Positions 31,362-62,057 of a stretch of DNA of 64,000 nucleotides are shown one piece after another. Under the pieces are notes generated by a model. That model was not told the origin of the DNA and ran no database searches. It worked only from the letters and a program-made list of their open reading frames with translations. The translations under genes and the position numbers were made by a program. The stretch covers positions 11,597-75,596 of the forward strand of contig JBJDYH010000223.1 of assembly GCA_051867135.1 (NCBI GenBank), read 5' to 3'. Source of the DNA: Faecousia sp. Lineage in GTDB: Bacteria > Bacillota > Clostridia > Oscillospirales > Oscillospiraceae. Numbering within the stretch: the first letter of the stretch is position 1; every line of letters starts with the position of its first letter.

Positions 31362-31635
31362 GAAACGCCGAGCTTGGCGGAATGTTGCGGCAAATCCACA
31401 GCGTAATACCCGGCATAAAAACGGAACGCCCTGCCGAGCATCGGCATCTACGATAATAATTGCCCACTTTCTTTCTGTCAGTTCCCATCATTCCATATTC
31501 ATAAGAAACGCCCAGTACAACCCGAATCCGGGATGTACTGGGCGTTCTCATTACGAACTTTACTGTCCTTGAAATACTCCTGTTGCGCCTTGGATAACTC
31601 CCGGCCTTGGGTATCCAAAGCTTCTCGGGATGTCT

Positions 31636-31872
31636 TTACTGTTCGCTCTCCTGTTCTTCTTCCTGTTTCCGCCGAGAAGATATTTGCAAGCACACTTCGT
31701 AAAGCTGGGCTGGTGTTGCGTCCAGATGGGACTCCATGAACTCTCCCATTTCCAGCATATCCTCGGGAAGCTCCAATTCCGCTACCATTGACAGAACTTG
31801 CAGTTTGCTGCATCCGTATTCTTTCAACAAATGTATGAGCATCTTCTGCTCTTCCGTTAATGACACGCTCAT
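31636..31872 (-). CDS. Nested small acidic protein (+1 frame inside the polyvalent fragment)
   Basis: SD GGAGGAG 7 nt before ATG 31872; aligns with 32182-32379 product. Confidence 0.7.
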   Translation of the reverse strand: MSVSLTEEQKMLIHLLKEYGCSKLQVLSMVAELELPEDMLEMGEFMESHLDATPAQLYEVCLQISSRRKQEEEQESEQ

Positions 31873-32181
31873 TTTCATACTCCTCCATTGCCATCTTCGT
31901 AAAAAGATGTTCGTTATTTGCTTTTCTGCCTATAGATACATACAGCAAAGTGTTATCATCTGTGATGCATATACCAAATAAGATATTTCCTTTGCTTTTT
32001 TCAGAGAAAACATTACTGTTAGAAGTTAATTGTGTGCCTCTGTTGTTATTGATTAGGTATTCTACCCTTGATTTTTCTTGCTTAGTTAAATTGGGAACCC
32101 AATGGCCATTTCTGCTGTAATTTACCTCTCCATCCACCAGCGGCTCCCTGCCTTGAGAATCCAAAGCTTCTCGTGAGAAAT

Positions 32182-32379
32182 CTACTTTTGGCTTATTTCC
32201 GCTACTTTTTTCAGAATTTTCGGAGTTTTTGCCATCTCGTTTTCCGCCATCCATTCCATCAGAGCGCACTGCTGTTCCTCGGTTTCCATTGCGGATACTA
32301 TCCCAACTATAGCGTCCTTTTCCACGCCGAAAATGCGAAGTCCAACTATTAAATGCTTTTGAATGTTCGTAAGTTCCAC
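32182..32379 (-). CDS. Nested small protein (+1 frame), paralog of 31636-31872
   Basis: SD GGAGG 9 nt before GTG; shared LTxxQKxLIxxLxxxGxxK..E..ExM..A..IS pattern. Confidence 0.7.
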   Translation of the reverse strand: MELTNIQKHLIVGLRIFGVEKDAIVGIVSAMETEEQQCALMEWMAENEMAKTPKILKKVAEISQK

Positions 32380-32630
32380 TTTCTAAGGCCTCCGTAAAAT
32401 TATCGATCGCAACCCGGTTCTTTTTGGTGATGCTAACTTTTACAAGGATTGTATAGTCCATAAAAGACTGATTGCTGTAAATATAGAAATAACCTCTAGT
32501 ATAGGCATACCATTGAGCAGGAAGGTCATTGTGAAACTGCCGCAACCTTTGGAAACAATTGTTATCCATCGTTTCTAGTTCAATGCTCCTACCGCCCGGC
32601 AGATATTTCAGAAAGTGTGCATCTTGGGGG

Positions 32631-32735
32631 TTGATTTCTCAGAATATATCTGCTAAACTGTATTTAGGAGCTGATATCAGGGAGGGGGCTTGATCGTTTT
32701 CAGGCGCACTCCCCACGACATCGGCTTCTATTTTG
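32631..32735 (+). ncRNA. Putative antisense small hairpin RNA with sigma-A promoter
   Basis: TTGATT(32631)-17-TAAACT(32654) with extended TG; stems 32665-32678/32717-32730 and 32680-32693/32700-32713; T tract. Confidence 0.6.
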
Positions 32736-32820
32736 TCATCGCAACAGCCAAAAATAACCTTCCTCCAACATCCAATGTCATTAAGTTGGTGACATTGGTA
32801 TTACTGCCGCTGCATTTTTT

Positions 32821-33079
32821 ACCTAAATTCCACAAAAATTATCATATACACGGTGGTTTTCAAAAACTTTTTTCGCAAATTATGTACATTAATTCCGATA
32901 AATCCCACGTTTTCTGAATAATTTATAAAATATTGCCAGAAAAATTTTTGTGAATAATTAACATATACCCAAAAGAAAAAAGCGACTCGAAAAGTTTAAT
33001 ATTTGAACAATTTTTGTGTAAAATAGTAAACAACTTCTTAAAAAAGTTTTGTATATGATAATTCTTGAGAAATTTAGGT
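32821..33079. repeat. 30-bp inverted repeat pair (27/30 identical) around an AT-rich spacer
   Basis: 32821-32850 versus 33050-33079 (tgtatatgataattyttgwgraatttaggt). Confidence 0.75.
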
Positions 33080-33217: not shown

Positions 33218-33250
33218 AATACCTGAAATCGTAGGATTTCAGGTACTTTT
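33218..33250 (-). terminator. tRNA-Pro terminator
   Basis: tacctgaaatc-gtag-gatttcaggta plus A tract. Confidence 0.8.
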
Positions 33251-33326
33251 GGTCCGAGTGACTGGATTCGAACCAGCGGCCTCTTGAACCCCATTCAAGC
33301 GCGATACCAAACTTCGCCACACCCGG
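33250..33326 (-). tRNA. tRNA-Pro(GGG)
   Basis: 77-nt cloverleaf: CCGGGTG/CACTCGG acceptor, CTTGA-ATGGGGT-TCAAG anticodon arm, GGTTCGAATCC, encoded CCA. Confidence 0.96.
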
Positions 33327-53567: not shown

Positions 53568-56500
53568 TCACCCATTTTTAGCATCCAGCACCTGCTGTCC
53601 AACCTGTTTACTGTATGGGTTATTCTTAGCGCTGGTAGAGCCGGTGGCAATCTGCCAAAGGACAGCTTTCTGTTCCATAGTCATACCGGACATACTATCA
53701 ATGGCTGTCTGTATCTCTTTGTTCGAGTAACTGCCATTGCCGTCAGCATCGTAGTCGGACTTAATCTCCTGTAGCTTGATATAGTTTCTGGGTGTTACCC
53801 CGAAATCATAAGCTAACTCCACTTTAGCATATTGCTTCTCATCCATAGCACCACGGAGCGCCGAAAGCTGTATTGCTTCATTCGTGGAAAAATCAACACA
53901 TGTCTGCCATTTCTGAATATCGGTTACCTTATCATTACCCGGCTCCGGTTCCAAATCCTCTAAAGCATCGACAAGATACAACGCCTCATCCTTGGAAAGG
54001 CCAGCCTCCGTATATTCCAGATAGTCGTCTAAATCGCCATTTGCCTGTACCATAGTCAAATACTCATCAACAGTCATACCTTCTTGCATGGCATCCAGCA
54101 GTTTGGCATATTCCGTAGGCTTCCCGGAAGAAGTCTCCATATCGGTACCCATGAGCTCGCCTACCAGCAGAAGCTTCTCGTTCTCGGTCAAATCCGCATC
54201 AAGAATCACTTTCCGTTTGGCAGCCTTTTCGCCCCTCTCTAGCAGCTCAGCAGCCCGGTAGCCATACACAACATCCAGAATCGTTCCGGCATCCACGCCC
54301 TCATCGTCCAGTATATCCATAACCTTTTCCAAAGTCTCGGATTCAAGAATACCATAAACAGCGATTGTTTTTCCCTCATCAGAAATATTGCTGCTCCTGA
54401 TTATGTCCAACTGCACATCCTTTTTTGCTTTGTCTTTGGTTTTCTCAGCGCTTCGCAGCGCATCAATAAGTTCATAGGCATCTCGGGCTTTCACGCCGGC
54501 ATCCAGCATATCTTTGTACATAGCAGTTTGCTTTGCACCAAGGCTATCAAAGCCGCTCTCAACCCACTGCACGGCCTCAGGTACAGAGTTCTTGCCCATA
54601 ACCGCAGTACGCAGCGCATTTCCCAACGCTTCGATAGGGCTTTCCTTGTAAATCGGATACTGCAAAATGTCCTGACCATTTTTATCAACGGTGTAACTCC
54701 CGCCCTCGGAAAACGCCTTCAGACCCTTCCATGTTTTTGAAATCTGACCGCCGCCGAATGGTGGAATCACATAGGCCAGTTTGTTCAGCTCATCCTGCAC
54801 CTTCTTCCACTTATACCGTCCATCCCAATCATCATTGGTCAGCACATCGACGAGTACACTTAAATCCGGGATGGCAGAAGAAACAGGGATTCGTCCTCCA
54901 TCGGTTTCGATGCCAAACAATGTCAGAGCCGCAGAAAACGGCAATTCGCCCAGACTGCTCTTCGCAATATTCTTAACGGCCTCCCCAGCACCTTTTTTGT
55001 TGGTTTCAAAGGATACATTTCCGCTTACTATACTGCTCAAACTCGGAATTTTGTAACCGGTTGTGTCTCCAACAAAATCGTTGATCAGGCTGATTGGGTC
55101 AAGCGCAGGCCGTCTTCCGAACAGAAGCTCGAACAAATCGTTGAAAAGATACGCCCGAACAAAGTACGAAAGAAACGACATTGCGATCTTAAAAGCAGCC
55201 TGTCCACGATAATGCCGGGGCATATCCTTGAACACTTCGCTGTACTGGTTATTTACCTCAAGCTGGAACTGGGTAAACATCTTTATGATTGGATTTACTG
55301 AATGGAAAAGCGTAGGCATATCGCCCTTAGCTCGTCCTGCCATAACACCGGCGGCAAAAATATCCGCCTCATGCAAGGCTTCCGTCTCCGACATACCGCT
55401 TTGCAGGTTCTTGTAGTAAGCAGCACGAAGAAGCGTGTCCGAAGAGAAGTTATCCACGATATTCATAAGAATACCCGCGAGCTCAGAGGCCTTCTGAATC
55501 TTAGTCTTTACCAGAACATCACTACCCCGTCTGCTGGTCAGGAAATCCGACTTCCCCACAATGCCATCATCCGCATTCCGCAAAGTATCCCACATAGCCC
55601 GCAGCATATTCCTGTCGCCGACACGGCCGGCAGCCTGAACAAGGGGAATAAAATTCGTCATGGCAGAGCTCACATTGCCTACTACCATATTTGCGCCAAC
55701 CCGGCTGTTCAAGTTTTTTGCAAGACGGTAAAACCGATTTCTGCCAAAAAGTGCCTCAACTCCACGGTCAAGTCTGCTTTTTTTGTTAGCCAAAAGATTG
55801 GTGTACTCATCCAGCTCATTCACGAAGTTGCTCAGCGAATACTTGCCTTTCTCCAATGTTGACTTAATTAAGTCTTCCTTTTCCGTATCGCTCAAATCTT
55901 CTCTTGTGCGGATATTATCAACCTGCTTTTGGATACCTTCCTCGCTGGTTCGATAGCGTATTTGGGTGGCCAGCGCACGCAGGTTTTGGATATTCTCGGT
56001 ATGGAAGATTACATCAGACACGCCCTCAATGTACCGGTCAAAGCCCTCTACAGCGTCATACACGGTATTAAACCCCAAACGCTCCTGAGCATTGCCAAAC
56101 CAGGTAGTACCCGGCTTGAATGTATGGGTAAGGCCGTTTATGGTTGTGGGCAGCACATCTACCTGGGTATCAATACCAAGTACCTTACCGAAGTATGCCA
56201 TAATGCCATCGCCGCCGTCCGGCTGGAAATGGGGGAAGTATCCCTTACGGTAGCTTACCGGCTCATAGCCGAAGCGAACCCGAACTTCATTCATCATGGT
56301 AAACAACTCATCGTAAATCTGCCTGAACTGCTCCACGCTGCGCTGAATCTTGGCTTTATCCAAATTAGGATTACTTCCCCAAAGGTCAAGAATGACCGCC
56401 TGCCACTCCTCCAGCGTCTTACCATCCCGGGTCTTGATATAACCTTGTGTCTGCTTCAGTGATTCAATATTGTCCTGAGCCTCACCAAGAAGCTGAACAG

Positions 56501-59500
56501 CGTGGGCTTCGGAGACAACATTTCCTTTGGCAACTTTTCGGCTCAGATTCATATCTGCGACACGGTTGCGCATCTCCGTTTTGAATCGAGTACGCGCGGC
56601 TTCGGCTATCTGCACCGGCTCAAAGTAGGCGCTTAAAACCTGCTTGGCAATCACCTTATCGGGAACAATGTCATAGACATTCCTCGTCATGGTCTCGCGG
56701 CTGTACTGAATGCCCATGGCCTTATCTTTCCATTCGTTGGCAGTTTCCAGATAACTATCCGCTTTTTCAAACAGAGCTGCATGCACCTGCCGTTTATACT
56801 CAGTAATGGACTTCCGGGCCTCCTCATACTCCTTCTTGGCCTCGTAAACCTCCCGAATGCCTTCCACATTATCCTTGCTGGGGTCTAGCTGTTCCAGAGA
56901 CATTTCACCCCGCAGCAGCTTGCCAACAATTTCCTCGTCGGCCGCCGTAAGCAAATTTCTTCTCACGGCCCGTTCGGAATTCCGCCGGGCATTCTTCATT
57001 TTGTTTCCGGCTTCCAGAGCTTCCTCCACGGTGCGTACCTTGGGCATCTGAGCCTTTTTCTCGGCCTGTGCCGCTTTATCCTCGCCGAACCGGCGAACCT
57101 TCCACAGGTCATTCCTGAGCTCATCGATAACGCTGTCAAAGCTCTCCCGTGCTGCCTGCTTCATCGTTCCGGCTGCCACGCCATAGTATTCATCCAGGCT
57201 CTGCTTCTGTTTCACAATGGAGTTAGCAACTTCATACATCTTCACCAGTTGATCTGCCGGGTGGGTAATCTCCTCCGGGAACAGCTCCGGCGCCATGCCC
57301 CGCAGCTCATCGTAAAAAGTATCAACCGGAATACCGCCCTCATTGACGATCCTCAGCGTCCACCGGCTTCGCTTTTTGAAATCCAGAAAGTCCACAATAT
57401 CTCCCTGATCACGGGCATCCAGAGTGACCGCTGTAGTACGCAGCTTATCCTTGATATCCTTGTACTGGTCATAGAATTCCCGGTCTTCAATTTCTCCCTT
57501 GCGCCAAGCGTCTTCAAAAAGCTGGTCTGCTATCTCCTGAGATATCTTTCCGGTTTCCAAATACGCATCAGAAAGCTGTTGCACCGTACCCCTCAGAAAA
57601 TCTCTTGCCTCCGCGTAGGGAACGCCAAATGTGTTACGAAGCGCCTGAAAAGCCTTCCACTCCTTGCTTGTCAAAGTATCTCTTGCTTTCGCGGGAAGAT
57701 TTTCCCGAGCAATAGGCGTTACCTCCTCAGCTTCCAACGGCTCTGCCTTTGGCTCAGCCCTACCGCGCATTTCTTCTACCTCTCCGGCAATCTGCGCCTC
57801 GTCCGCATCTTGGTAGCTATCGTCAAACGAAAATGTTTCCTTTGCTAAATATGTATCATAAACCGATTTATCTCCGTATTCAAAGATATCCATGAAAGGA
57901 ACGCCCTCAGTCTTGACATTTGAGCCTTCATAAGATATACTACCTATGTAACCACCCTGAGTGCAGGTGATAGGCGCAGAGAGGCCTATCGCCGAAAGCA
58001 GACGGGTGGTTCTTTTTTTGTCCGCGTATAGTACATCGCTCGACTCAAGGAAAAACCTTCCGTTTTCATCGGCATTACGATTCCGGGTCTCAGTCTTTGT
58101 ATAAACACTATTAACTTTCTGCATATCGTTAATATAAAAACCTTTTTCCACAGGGTGCATATCAAAGACGACAAGAACAGGACGCCTATTTTCGGCTAAA
58201 ACAGAACCATACAGAATCAATCGAGAGTTTATACCCTTGCTGGTCAAAATTAATATGGGATCTTCAAGGATTTTTGGAATATCTGCCAAAATATCAATAG
58301 AAACTTCTGGATGATCGTGGAGTATTTTCTTTGCCTTTTCCGGGGTTAGGTATATATCACTTTCGATACCTCCAAGTGCTTGGATCACACTTCCTGTGCT
58401 TCCAAGAATGAATGTAGGGACATCAGTGCTTTGCCCAAATCTATTCCAACTGCGAATATCTTCAGCAAAAGCAATAGCCTCCCCTGAGTAAACGCCCGGC
58501 CTTTCAGTAGAAAACCTCTCCACCGGCGGCCCGGTGGGCTGCTCCGTACCGTTCTCCTGCATCTGCAATCGTCCGACACCGTTTTCGTCCATCCATCCTC
58601 TCACGCCCTCTGTGAACCTGTCAGCCCCAGCGCCAAAGGCATTGATGCCTGCGTATGCGTCCGCGAGAACTTCCTCCACACACCGTCTGAAGGTTTCCTC
58701 GTACTCATCGGCAGAGGCATTCTCTTGACAGCCATAAATCGCCCAAAGGTTATCCTTGTAGGTATCCAGTACCCGGCTAAACTCCTCCATGGAATGCTGC
58801 TCCATAATACTTTCCGCAAGGAAATCGACCATAGAGCGAAGCTCGTTTGATTTCCAGTGGAAAATCTCATGGTCACCGAGCTGCTCCACAGAAACTTTGT
58901 TGTCCGCCTGAAGAATAATCTTATCGGATTGGAAAACACCCCGAGCATAGCCAACGCGGCCGTCAGACCTGGCAACCTCGATGCCGCCTATTACATAAGT
59001 AACCGTGCATCCCGTTTCCTCATAAATCTGCTTGGCAGTAAGCTGCAATTCGGCGTCCCAATGGCTCTCAGGGATTACTAAGAGATTCTGCGCATCTGTG
59101 CCGTTCTGTAGACCCAGTTCCTTGCTGCTGACATTCTGGATTATGCCTTGTCGCCGTAAATCATTCGCAGCATTCTGTCTTTGAACGCTTGCCACTGTGC
59201 CTGAGTAGGCTGCGGGCCGTTTCCCTGCTGCGCGGCTTCCCAGGCTTCCAGCTTGCTCTGCGGTACCCGGGTCAGCATACCGTCCCTGCCCTCCATCAGA
59301 TACACCGTTTCCTGTGACGGTTCCGGGCTGGGTAACTGTAGGGGTCTGGGTTCGTTCGTTGCTGTTTGCATTTACTGTACCTCCGTTCTTATTTGTAAAG
59401 TTAAACTTATTGCCAATCCTACTTACCGCTTCGCCAGTAACTTCTTTGACGGTCTTGGACTGAACCTCTTTGGTCGCCCGAGCATAAGCCCGGCCCTCTG

Positions 59501-62057
59501 TCTCGGACTCCATCCGGTCGATTTCGTCCATAATTTGATTATATGTGTCAAAGTCAATTTCACCGGCAGCAAAAGCATGCTCCACCGCCCCCCGGTCTAT
59601 GCTCTCGCCTCTCGAAGTGTCAGGTTCGGACACATTTTCAATTCCCATCTGCCGGGCAATCTCAGCCTGGAAAGCCTCTTGGCCAGTTATCGACTTCTGC
59701 TGGGTATCATTCTGGGTTTGTGGTGAGGATTCCGTGGGAGTATCCTCCCTGCTTTCTTCGCTCTGGATGCGCTTTCCTTGTTCCTCGGCCGCGGCTGCAG
59801 CATATTCAGCACGAATAGCATCCTCATCGGCCTGAACAAGCTGAACAATCTCAGCACCGCTCAATTCTTTGCCACTATTTACCCTCTGCTGAAACTGCAC
59901 AGCCAGCAAATAGCTCAAGCTGTCATGGTCAGATTCCAAACCCTCCGCAATCAGCTCTTCCACGGAGCTTCCATATATTTGCTTAACCCTTTTGTTTTGC
60001 TGATGATTGGAATAGGCATTAACCGCAGAAGAAAACACACTCTCACCGCCGCCAAGCAATAAGCCAACGCTGGCACCCATGCCAAATTCCTCGGCCATCT
60101 CCTTCAGATTCGCAAGCTGCGTGTCTGGTGCATAGGCAACCTTCGCCACCAAATTGTTTACAAAGCCCTGTAAGACTTCCTCGCCGCCTTCTTCCGCAGC
60201 GGATACCAGCCACGCAAGCAGCTTATTGCCGTCGCCCATGAGCTCCTCAGGCAGGCCCTGAATACCGCTTGTACCGCTGAAACCCACCTCAATGCCGGAG
60301 TTGATTAACGATGTAATTGTGGCACACAAGGCAGCCGTCGTGTCGCTGGCACCCATGGACTTGGCCTGTTCGTAGTCGCCGCTATATGTTCTCCCATAGC
60401 TGAGCCAGAAGCTGGGATTCCTCGCCATGTTCTGAACCGTAATACCTGCCTTCGTCAAGAAATTGCCGCTCATATACGCAGCGTTTGTGGCAAGCCTGGA
60501 AGATGTGGCTCCAGCGGAGCTTCCCGCTGTCATGAACGCAAGCACCGCATCCGGAACAGCAGCAACCGTGCCCTCGATGATGCTGCCCGCAATATCGTAA
60601 GCCTTGCCGCCGCCCATTTTCTCCTTATAGAGGTTTCTGTTAAATGCCTGGGCATTATATGCATCGCTGTAATAGTCAGAAACAGATGAAACAGGATTAT
60701 TCTTCCACCCCAACGCCTGCAAGGGTTTTCCTACCAAATAGTCAAGAGTACCGGTAATGCTTTTGTTGAAAGAGCCTAACCCAGATATGGCAGAAGCTCC
60801 TAACCAATCCAAAAAATTGCCAGCAGAAAAGTTGCTGTCTCCTGTCATCAGCGAATACCACTCATCAGGGTCTACACCTGCCTTTTTCATTTCGGCCATA
60901 ACTGTATTCTTATAGCTATCACTTACCTTACCATTATTGGCTACAATATACTGCAGAGCTTCCAGAACGGTGCGATTCTCACCCGGCATGCTTACCTCGG
61001 AAAGAATCTGCATTTTCTCGTCCATAAGCTTGGAATTGTACAGGTTGGTATAGAAAAGATTCTCATCGCCGGTGCTGGAAACCATTTTAACCTGCGCTTC
61101 CCGCAAGGTCATGGCCTCCGGTGCATACGCTTTCAGCCATGCAAGTTCTTCCTCCGAAATATCCGGCGTTCCCTTGCTCGCAGACTCCCGCATTTCCTTG
61201 ACCTGCTTATACAACTTACCCCATTGAGAATTGACAGACTTTCGTTCTTCCAAAGCTTCAGGCGTGCCAATTTCCCAAAGTTCAGCAGCTCTCTCAGCCA
61301 ATTCGGTTTTTTGCCGCTCAAGTTCAGCGATTTCCGCGCTGGTATTCGCATCGATGCCCTCTATCAGACATTCCAGCTCCGTATAACTCTTACCGGCGTA
61401 CTTTTGACGATAAGCCATATCCTGCTGCCATGTTTTATAGCTGTCTTCCGAATCCCAGTTCCCATAGAAGTCTGCCAATTCTTTGATTGTGCCGGAATTG
61501 TCTTTGCTAATCTCGGCATACAGGTTTGTAAGCTGCTCGGAGAGCTCTGCATCGCTTCCGTAATCCGCATACAGCTCGCTTATCCTGCTCAGAATCTCCC
61601 TGCGCTGGTTGTCGTAGTCCGTTCGGAAACGCTCTATCTCGTCCTGACTGCGCCATCGATCACTGCCAAATTCCAAATTCCAGCTATTGTAATGATTGTA
61701 CAGTCTGTCCTGCAAATCGCGAATCTTGTATTCCGGGTTTTCCCTGACAAGCCCCTGCAAATCATCAAAAGAAGGCTTGAGGCCGGAAGACAAAGAAAAA
61801 TTAACATTGTCTTGGTACTTTTGGTAGCCAGTTTGTGCCTTGCTGCCGGATTGCGCGGCGTTTTCAAGTCTTGCCTGGGCCTGAAGATATTCAAAAGAAG
61901 GTTTGGTTGTCACAGACTCATCGTCTGGCTGAACGGTCGCAGGCTTATTGACGGGCCGGGCAGGCTGCCCATCCGCCTCGGCAGAATCATCATAATTAAC
62001 TGCCTCCGGCTTTTGGTAAGCCAGTTTTTTCAATTCTTCATAAGACGGCTTTCCCAT
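53568..62057 (-). CDS. Phage large polyvalent (DNA ejection-type) protein, 2829 aa
   Basis: EEGGEEVLQ-type helical region, HEIFH zincin module (58857-58871), MuF-C/PBECR-like module (KILHDHPE..IPKILEDPILILTS), LPD38-like C-terminal region (FTQFQ, PFGGGQISK); domain names from recall. Confidence 0.85.
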   Translation of the reverse strand: MGKPSYEELKKLAYQKPEAVNYDDSAEADGQPARPVNKPATVQPDDESVTTKPSFEYLQAQARLENAAQSGSKAQTGYQKYQDNVNFSLSSGLKPSFDDLQGLVRENPEYKIRDLQDRLYNHYNSWNLEFGSDRWRSQDEIERFRTDYDNQRREILSRISELYADYGSDAELSEQLTNLYAEISKDNSGTIKELADFYGNWDSEDSYKTWQQDMAYRQKYAGKSYTELECLIEGIDANTSAEIAELERQKTELAERAAELWEIGTPEALEERKSVNSQWGKLYKQVKEMRESASKGTPDISEEELAWLKAYAPEAMTLREAQVKMVSSTGDENLFYTNLYNSKLMDEKMQILSEVSMPGENRTVLEALQYIVANNGKVSDSYKNTVMAEMKKAGVDPDEWYSLMTGDSNFSAGNFLDWLGASAISGLGSFNKSITGTLDYLVGKPLQALGWKNNPVSSVSDYYSDAYNAQAFNRNLYKEKMGGGKAYDIAGSIIEGTVAAVPDAVLAFMTAGSSAGATSSRLATNAAYMSGNFLTKAGITVQNMARNPSFWLSYGRTYSGDYEQAKSMGASDTTAALCATITSLINSGIEVGFSGTSGIQGLPEELMGDGNKLLAWLVSAAEEGGEEVLQGFVNNLVAKVAYAPDTQLANLKEMAEEFGMGASVGLLLGGGESVFSSAVNAYSNHQQNKRVKQIYGSSVEELIAEGLESDHDSLSYLLAVQFQQRVNSGKELSGAEIVQLVQADEDAIRAEYAAAAAEEQGKRIQSEESREDTPTESSPQTQNDTQQKSITGQEAFQAEIARQMGIENVSEPDTSRGESIDRGAVEHAFAAGEIDFDTYNQIMDEIDRMESETEGRAYARATKEVQSKTVKEVTGEAVSRIGNKFNFTNKNGGTVNANSNERTQTPTVTQPGTVTGNGVSDGGQGRYADPGTAEQAGSLGSRAAGKRPAAYSGTVASVQRQNAANDLRRQGIIQNVSSKELGLQNGTDAQNLLVIPESHWDAELQLTAKQIYEETGCTVTYVIGGIEVARSDGRVGYARGVFQSDKIILQADNKVSVEQLGDHEIFHWKSNELRSMVDFLAESIMEQHSMEEFSRVLDTYKDNLWAIYGCQENASADEYEETFRRCVEEVLADAYAGINAFGAGADRFTEGVRGWMDENGVGRLQMQENGTEQPTGPPVERFSTERPGVYSGEAIAFAEDIRSWNRFGQSTDVPTFILGSTGSVIQALGGIESDIYLTPEKAKKILHDHPEVSIDILADIPKILEDPILILTSKGINSRLILYGSVLAENRRPVLVVFDMHPVEKGFYINDMQKVNSVYTKTETRNRNADENGRFFLESSDVLYADKKRTTRLLSAIGLSAPITCTQGGYIGSISYEGSNVKTEGVPFMDIFEYGDKSVYDTYLAKETFSFDDSYQDADEAQIAGEVEEMRGRAEPKAEPLEAEEVTPIARENLPAKARDTLTSKEWKAFQALRNTFGVPYAEARDFLRGTVQQLSDAYLETGKISQEIADQLFEDAWRKGEIEDREFYDQYKDIKDKLRTTAVTLDARDQGDIVDFLDFKKRSRWTLRIVNEGGIPVDTFYDELRGMAPELFPEEITHPADQLVKMYEVANSIVKQKQSLDEYYGVAAGTMKQAARESFDSVIDELRNDLWKVRRFGEDKAAQAEKKAQMPKVRTVEEALEAGNKMKNARRNSERAVRRNLLTAADEEIVGKLLRGEMSLEQLDPSKDNVEGIREVYEAKKEYEEARKSITEYKRQVHAALFEKADSYLETANEWKDKAMGIQYSRETMTRNVYDIVPDKVIAKQVLSAYFEPVQIAEAARTRFKTEMRNRVADMNLSRKVAKGNVVSEAHAVQLLGEAQDNIESLKQTQGYIKTRDGKTLEEWQAVILDLWGSNPNLDKAKIQRSVEQFRQIYDELFTMMNEVRVRFGYEPVSYRKGYFPHFQPDGGDGIMAYFGKVLGIDTQVDVLPTTINGLTHTFKPGTTWFGNAQERLGFNTVYDAVEGFDRYIEGVSDVIFHTENIQNLRALATQIRYRTSEEGIQKQVDNIRTREDLSDTEKEDLIKSTLEKGKYSLSNFVNELDEYTNLLANKKSRLDRGVEALFGRNRFYRLAKNLNSRVGANMVVGNVSSAMTNFIPLVQAAGRVGDRNMLRAMWDTLRNADDGIVGKSDFLTSRRGSDVLVKTKIQKASELAGILMNIVDNFSSDTLLRAAYYKNLQSGMSETEALHEADIFAAGVMAGRAKGDMPTLFHSVNPIIKMFTQFQLEVNNQYSEVFKDMPRHYRGQAAFKIAMSFLSYFVRAYLFNDLFELLFGRRPALDPISLINDFVGDTTGYKIPSLSSIVSGNVSFETNKKGAGEAVKNIAKSSLGELPFSAALTLFGIETDGGRIPVSSAIPDLSVLVDVLTNDDWDGRYKWKKVQDELNKLAYVIPPFGGGQISKTWKGLKAFSEGGSYTVDKNGQDILQYPIYKESPIEALGNALRTAVMGKNSVPEAVQWVESGFDSLGAKQTAMYKDMLDAGVKARDAYELIDALRSAEKTKDKAKKDVQLDIIRSSNISDEGKTIAVYGILESETLEKVMDILDDEGVDAGTILDVVYGYRAAELLERGEKAAKRKVILDADLTENEKLLLVGELMGTDMETSSGKPTEYAKLLDAMQEGMTVDEYLTMVQANGDLDDYLEYTEAGLSKDEALYLVDALEDLEPEPGNDKVTDIQKWQTCVDFSTNEAIQLSALRGAMDEKQYAKVELAYDFGVTPRNYIKLQEIKSDYDADGNGSYSNKEIQTAIDSMSGMTMEQKAVLWQIATGSTSAKNNPYSKQVGQQVLDAKNG
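57913..58020 (+). ncRNA. Putative antisense small hairpin RNA inside the polyvalent gene
   Basis: TTGACA(57913)-17-TATACT(57936); stems aaccaccc/gggtggtt and ggtgataggc/gcctatcgcc; T7 tract. Confidence 0.7.
59141..59371 (-). CDS. Nested 76-aa protein (+1 frame inside the polyvalent gene)
   Basis: GGAGGT SD 7 nt before ATG; globular-looking sequence while the host frame is a G/Q/T/A-rich linker. Confidence 0.65.
   Translation of the reverse strand: MQTATNEPRPLQLPSPEPSQETVYLMEGRDGMLTRVPQSKLEAWEAAQQGNGPQPTQAQWQAFKDRMLRMIYGDKA

Follow-up and report, generated by a model that had tools for sequence, protein, structure and literature searches.

In the 64,000-nt stretch of Faecousia sp. DNA analysed here (the window), a promoter and a hairpin lie opposite a dead reading frame of phage origin, which raises the question of whether the RNA or the protein has been retained and, if the RNA, for what use. 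A sequence-only reading had proposed that the RNA, not the protein, is kept. We compared the unit with its relatives in phage genes and bacterial chromosomes, and this proposal was supported by compensatory changes in the hairpin, by the presence of a whole unit without the domain core, and by the same asymmetry in other genomes. For the window copy alone, selection and recent, neutral persistence look alike.

The unit at 32631 and its surroundings

The promoter and hairpin described by the sequence-only reading were both found opposite the dead frame, with TTGATT, a 17-nt spacer, a TG and TAAACT ahead of the fold (Table 1), and the minus-strand stop indeed fell within the promoter spacer. The predicted promoter is of the sigma70 type. 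It matched 8 of the 12 consensus bases and was overlooked by a plain promoter scan; it was established from its homologues, three of which have both hexamers (TTGATT and TAAACT) in intact genes; TAAACT was found in the intact loci L029, L030 and L063. The hairpin had a folding energy of -36.4 kcal/mol, equalled by none of 200 shuffled sequences, and owing to its G-U pairs it was 10 kcal/mol more stable than the complementary strand. The T tract had been described as intact; a T run was present, but it contained four T, one fewer than in the five closest intact relatives (L029, L030, L031, L032 and L063). The unit likely yields an RNA of ~70 nt. At the gathering score of Rfam, tRNA alone was matched in the whole window, and the hairpin unit was unmatched.

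A combined scan for promoter, hairpin and T run gave exactly two matches in the 64-kb window, at 32631 and 57913, and a background of 33 matches, counting both strands, in the 3.5-Mb genome of the same organism. The earlier claim that these two units share a design while being unrelated in sequence held on both counts, since the architecture was the same and blastn found no similarity between them. The second unit lies inside an intact polyvalent gene of a resident prophage, beyond which large phage-type ORFs run on to the contig end; one of them probably encodes a terminase, as read from its motif. A blastn search of the window unit against its own assembled genome (71% complete) gave no other match. 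Other cassettes, as we call units consisting of a promoter, a hairpin and a T run, were seen in the same genome. On a contig carrying host genes, three of them surround a disrupted polyvalent fragment at a distance of 1.4 kb from a tRNA-Ile (C336:414-1750). A long polyvalent gene carries a different subtype with a second 3' hairpin (L103, C247:564-680), and a strong cassette-like match lies at a contig edge beside host genes (C195:175, minus strand).

The dead frame opposite the unit derives from a phage LPD3 domain. Its 177 nt correspond to profile positions 174-219 of 219, and DNA homology to five intact genes was limited to this interval. The tail matched at 83% a polyvalent protein of 1258 aa (P0002), which carries LPD3 (PF18798) and ART-PolyVal domains. 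The base missing from the T run is a frameshift, beyond which the LPD3 reading resumes in another frame up to 32772; together with the TGA, it breaks the LPD3 frame twice. The RNA unit is whole, with ~35 nt of phage sequence on either side, and the domain core is missing. A host sRNA of unrelated origin was ruled out, since phage genes match the sequence flanking the hairpin on either side at 76-78% identity.

The frame had also been taken to be continuous with the neighbouring polyvalent fragment. This was not borne out, as the sequence below 32596 is a different polyvalent piece joined on and not the natural continuation. The joined fragment of 1.05 kb has an open frame and is cassette-free; it had no match in Pfam, and its two unnamed domains had no usable match in the ESM Atlas. 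The whole insert lies 3' of tRNA-Pro, where relatives have different, unrelated genes, and by DNA it was shared by none of 24 genus genomes. An assembly artefact is unlikely, because contigs from two runs repeat the left junction, on the ABC-transporter side, and similar inserts occur in other genomes. Contigs from four DNA runs left 32632-32779 uncovered. A MITE-like element, dispersed in the genome, sits between the insert and the tRNA. An unnamed cassette-free polyvalent domain recurs beside orphan cassettes, at 32150-32569 in the window, at G000:C336:723-1334 and at L061:4836-5378; its window copy had no match in Pfam or the Atlas.

Table 1. Features of the window bearing on the two units (position 1 is the first letter of the window)
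Feature	Position	Strand	Basis or remark
-35 hexamer TTGATT	32631..32636	+	TTGA invariant in 36/36 aligned homologues
Extended -10 (TG-c-TAAACT)	32651..32659	+	TG at 32651-32652, TAAACT at 32654-32659
In-frame TGA in promoter spacer	32639..32641	-	Sequence
66-nt hairpin: outer stem, conserved internal loop, inner stems	32665..32730	+	z -5.8; covariation
Internal-loop motif CAG	32678..32680	+	Leu codons all CTG, 21/21; 21/26 intact rows
Internal-loop motif GAC	32717..32719	+	Val codons all GTC, 22/22; 22/26 intact rows
T run, 4 T, predicted transcript end	32731..32734	+	blastn against L029, L030, L031, L032, L063
LPD3 remnant of phage origin (final strand and tail, no core)	32596..32772	-	76-78% nucleotide identity, five intact loci
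Second, joined polyvalent gene fragment	31543..32593	-	Two unnamed domains and start of ART-PolyVal linker
MITE-like element, 30-bp terminal inverted repeats	32821..33079	.	blastn matches on C379, C158, C250, C182
tRNA-Pro(GGG)	33250..33326	-	Insertions on its 3' side vary within the genus
Second unit, same design, right behind MuF-C domain	57913..58020	+	TTGACA-17-TATACT; z -4.9
Intact 2829-aa polyvalent gene of resident prophage	53568..62057	-	Contains MuF_C at aa 1242-1350

The RNA family and the domains ahead of it

Pattern scans found loci in genomes (34), viruses (6) and metagenomes (14), and 36 copies were placed in a plain MAFFT alignment of 26 intact and 10 orphan rows. The consensus fold of this alignment had a covariation term of -3.0. 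Compensatory change among homologues, on which the sequence-only reading had staked its claim, was seen as two-sided changes in 12 of the 14 named pairs of the nested hairpin. In the 36 homologues 92% of cells were paired, compared to 42-54% in slid controls, and two-sided changes were found in 110 cells, compared to 42 ± 8 in a shuffle control that ignores kinship. The paired cells numbered 130/140 in the orphan rows and 331/360 in the intact rows, and the TAnnnT of the -10 was kept in 9/10 and 26/26 rows, respectively. Synonymous sites of the codons that overlap the promoter and internal loop were locked in the intact rows: the codon over the -35 hexamer was ATC or GTC alone (26/26), serine was always AGT (20/20) and isoleucine always ATA (19/19), in addition to the leucine and valine codons of Table 1. 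Because 12 of 14 pairs covary and the promoter bases lock synonymous codons, the units constitute a real RNA family.

The two locked loop bases may just pair with each other, but they do not swap as the stem pairs do. The RNA is nearly all paired, with a short and variable apical loop, and in the protein model the residues encoded opposite the hairpin (182-199) are disordered. In four intact genes (L033, L034, L047 and L057) the hairpin is duplicated exactly and in frame, and it is single in most.

Integron attC sites are imperfect hairpins with bulges. By analogy, the bulged hairpin might be a DNA-level signal such as a recombination or cassette-shuffling site, which would suit the highly mosaic polyvalent genes described in PMC5512222, or it might be a mere terminator of antisense transcription that damps late-gene expression. 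We regard this as highly improbable. The promoter is found at a fixed distance in every copy, the G-U pairs favour one strand as RNA, and fragment ends fall outside the hairpin. Furthermore, a terminator would need less than three tiers, 66 nt and an internal loop that stays fixed.

Cassette positions were examined in 289 kb of sequence from 55 long ORFs, which include duplicated loci. All 54 cassettes found were antisense and none was sense; 29 of them (four being duplicates) were not of the searched type. A Pfam scan covered nineteen of these ORFs, with only the best stretch per family considered. In our own tally, a cassette lay within 75 aa behind 13/13 LPD3, MuF_C or PBECR3 domains outside the search query, and behind 0/9 ART, RadC, LPD14 or LPD23 domains. 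Two cassettes in intact phage genes (L030, aa 859; L043, aa 1551) had no domain directly ahead, and these appear to be RNAs that the phage itself has retained as orphans.

In intact genes the tail is preceded by LPD3, a domain that the sequence-only reading had left unnamed. PF18798 matched ahead of the tail in 24 of the 27 members (E <= 0.1, best 5e-08), with the first LPD3 member under the curated PF18798 cut-off. The model of the LPD3 core (pLDDT 93.6) consists of a helix followed by a four-stranded antiparallel sheet, the arrangement expected of BECR-fold RNases such as RelE, BrnT and colicin D. Its best three structure matches were all toxins, namely BrnT (Z 5.6), a CdiA toxin (Z 5.1) and a Salmonella toxin-antitoxin toxin (Z 5.0), with an rmsd of 3.6-4.1 over 75-93 aligned residues and Z scores under 8, below the decisive level of the tool. 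Foldseek gave no match to either protein model at E <= 0.001. Ser, His and Tyr residues are conserved in LPD3. The MuF-C and PBECR domains are predicted BECR RNases in PMC5512222, and we infer that LPD3 would be an active BECR-fold RNase.

Cassettes in bacterial chromosomes

Ten of the 34 genome loci had a broken frame and lay among host genes, four of them within 650 nt of a tRNA. Because the first pattern scan needed the tail, we also searched the whole 219-position domain profile in two genome draws (399 and 401 genomes, two genomes being left unscored). The profile matched 19 other genomes, of which eight had a cassette without an intact core, ten had both, none had the core alone, and one gave a weak, unrelated match. 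Two of the eight core-less cases (L074/L158 and L076) were decaying prophage genes and not isolated inserts. Six independent deletions all spared the RNA end (sign test, p 0.016). A search with the RNA model found 8/30 genomes in another genus, seven of them without a long frame, one of which (L098) keeps a whole core. In the genus of the window it found 4/140 other genomes, with two orphans, two intact copies and none at the window site. The orphans were patchy in their distribution, with 2/140 other genomes of the window's genus and 7/30 of the other genus having one.

The orphan cassettes were trimmed and combined in several ways. In L077, L088, L095, L152 and L153, cassettes were cut to within ~15 codons on both sides. 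Arrays of different cassettes with broken frames, all on one strand, comprised five units in L062, four in L149, three each in L152, L061 and C336 of the window's own genome, and two each in L088 and L099. Several of these arrays of two to five different units lie between housekeeping genes or beside tRNAs, and no recombinase was found beside the arrays among the loci read. In L099 the cassettes stand head to tail without a coding flank, the T run of one abutting the -35 of the next. Nine of the 17 extra cassettes matched polyvalent linkers in a 63-ORF library (E <= 0.002), and the four extra cassettes of L062 came from four different linker types. Different minimal cassettes precede the same gene in two species of one genus (L095:1501-1618 and L099:1501-1710), which suggests a slot that gets refilled. 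Four cassettes within 860 nt lie behind a dUTPase-like gene in L149 (880-1830), and three of them share the promoter and an apical loop motif.

We then considered that the RNA may serve the phage, with the chromosomal copies, the window's included, being neutral remains left by prophages decaying at tRNA sites. Even when no RNA is searched for, isolated polyvalent fragments turn up often: 9/30 loci found through a control domain, ART-PolyVal, were of this kind (same draw; three of the 30, L126, L135 and L136, were left out, as they are not polyvalent genes). A metallopeptidase profile was dropped as a control because it was too diverse (22% mean identity). Four of the nine ART-PolyVal fragments were cassette-free by scan, although one of these, L134, has a cassette by eye. 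The cassette density was 0.56/kb in the nine fragments and 0.22/kb in 18 intact loci (p 0.033), a modest excess, and the share of short frames (7/11 for LPD3 vs 9/29 for ART) did not differ significantly (p 0.08). Several of the ART-PolyVal finds (L108, L116, L120, L123, L129 and L134) start or end at a cassette, with the nuclease-like domain cut away.

Decay was also seen in the RNA itself. The -10 of the G412 orphan is mutated. Against its sister copy, ~7 differences were counted by eye over 113 nt, a level at or above that of the flanks, so the decay of this orphan extends to its RNA. This decay, the T lost from the window copy, the persistence of cassette-free fragments, the variable tRNA flank and the restriction of the insert to the window among 24 genus relatives all fit neutral debris. 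However, cassettes alone were found eight times and cores alone never, and cassettes were trimmed at both edges. The head-to-tail cassettes of L099 without coding flanks, the different cassettes before the same gene in L095 and L099, and the arrays mixing cassettes of different domain families also count against debris. We judge this explanation improbable, but it may hold for some copies, the window's included.

Possible roles of the RNA and comparison with known systems

The explanation we favour is that the cassette encodes an RNA antitoxin which binds its nuclease and which the host keeps as immunity; considering the sequence evidence, we find it evenly balanced whether this is correct. 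The cassette originates from the tail of a phage LPD3 domain; it would be transcribed by the housekeeping sigma factor, and its ~70-nt RNA would act on the protein, binding and neutralising the predicted LPD3 ribonuclease. Injection of polyvalent proteins with the phage DNA is proposed in PMC5512222, and the same would apply here. A toxin domain embedded midway in a polyprotein of 2000-3500 aa would leave no room for an immunity gene, so that in this model the antidote is written into the codons of the domain's own linker and travels with the domain. The injected nuclease would be harmful except where the phage DNA entering the cell persists and expresses the RNA. Hosts that produce the RNA beforehand would be spared, and a cassette without its domain would be a ready antidote.

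A protein-binding antitoxin is favoured because there is one cassette per nuclease-like domain, the loop bases are fixed, the hairpin is duplicated as a whole, and the RNA, but never the core, is found alone. Several observations count against the antidote. The window keeps 1.05 kb of cassette-free, open-frame phage DNA, and its T run is shortened. In addition, the G412 copy is decaying, isolated fragments are common, orphans are patchy, and the fold scores are low.

As the main alternative, the RNA could base-pair with the polyvalent mRNA as a type I-like, 3'-overlapping antisense RNA, and orphans would then silence the virion gene of incoming phages that are close relatives. The RNA is cis-antisense by position, and in L098 a cassette lies over the 3' end of a stand-alone LPD3 ORF. 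There is also a precedent in the prophage antisense RNA STnc6030, which blocks its own phage when expressed in a naive host (PMC7067206). However, complementarity would be free to arise anywhere in the gene, yet the cassettes are placed behind three domain families only, one per domain. The loop bases are locked in sequence, and the nearly complete pairing of the RNA, with its short and variable apical loop, also counts against base pairing to an mRNA. Furthermore, the closest intact relatives are merely 76-78% identical to the window copy, and the unit has no other match in its own assembled genome. We therefore consider base pairing rather unlikely.

The antidote reading can be set beside known toxin-antitoxin types. 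Type III systems (ToxIN, CptIN, TenpIN) similarly combine an RNase toxin, here a predicted one, with a small structured RNA, and their tandem RNA copies may have a counterpart in the four intact genes with duplicated hairpins. Their RNA repeats precede the toxin gene on a shared strand and in a single operon, separated by a terminator, and are pseudoknotted (PMC12283969). The cassette RNA, in contrast, runs antisense within the ORF and follows the domain; it has a promoter of its own and a hairpin fold, and the domain belongs to a virion-type polyprotein. None of the 54 cassettes had the type III layout, all being antisense and behind the domain.

Type I toxins are mostly small peptides. Convergent antisense RNAs over the 3' part of a toxin-like frame, as in SR6/yonT of B. 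subtilis and STnc6030 of phage BTP1, resemble the cassette RNA, and such RNAs can confer immunity to the cognate phage. They differ from the cassette RNA, a covarying hairpin of 66 nt that is found in mid-gene, one for each nuclease-like domain, and STnc6030 measures ~786 nt (PMC7067206). The complementarity of RNA to toxin mRNA that marks type I is present by position in intact genes, and for the window RNA blastn found no target in its own assembly.

The arrays resemble the AID/rAID orphan immunity arrays of gut Bacteroidales, which are chromosomal arrays of antidotes without toxins. Those antidotes (10.1101/471110, PMC12247911) are proteins against type VI secretion effectors, whereas here they would be RNAs from phage genes, and the arrays contained no protein-coding orphan immunity genes. 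The MuF polymorphic toxins and polyvalent proteins have the same domains (MuF-C/PBECR, LPD3, ART-PolyVal) and are proposed to be virion-delivered (PMC5576092 and PMC5512222). In contrast to the cassettes, immunity to MuF toxins is ascribed to small downstream ORFs (PMC5576092), and the word "antisense" is absent from the main texts of both papers. A full-text literature search, with supplements and most subscription papers outside its scope, returned no paper on these cassettes.

More tentatively, with doubt slightly outweighing belief, the sequences suggest that gut Clostridia may gather phage-derived RNA antitoxins into chromosomal arsenals. An aptamer-like inhibitor would be encoded antisense in the linker of each nuclease domain of a virion polyprotein. 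Hosts would excise the cassettes and line them up at tRNA and other intergenic sites, gaining an acquired immunity, made of RNA alone, against the toxins that phages inject. If true, this would be a toxin-antitoxin layout outside types I and III, and the host arrays would be the RNA counterpart of orphan immunity clusters and a trace, outside CRISPR, of the phages met before. Up to 26% of polyvalent proteins contain PBECR domains (PMC5512222), and a gene-internal RNA antidote for each domain would, if true, explain how cells making PBECR proteins survive. The predicted minimal pair consists of one 124-aa domain and one 70-nt RNA. At L098:856-1632, a whole LPD3 ORF stands alone, overlapped at the 3' end by a cassette whose promoter spacer contains a frameshift; this locus is a candidate solo toxin-RNA pair.
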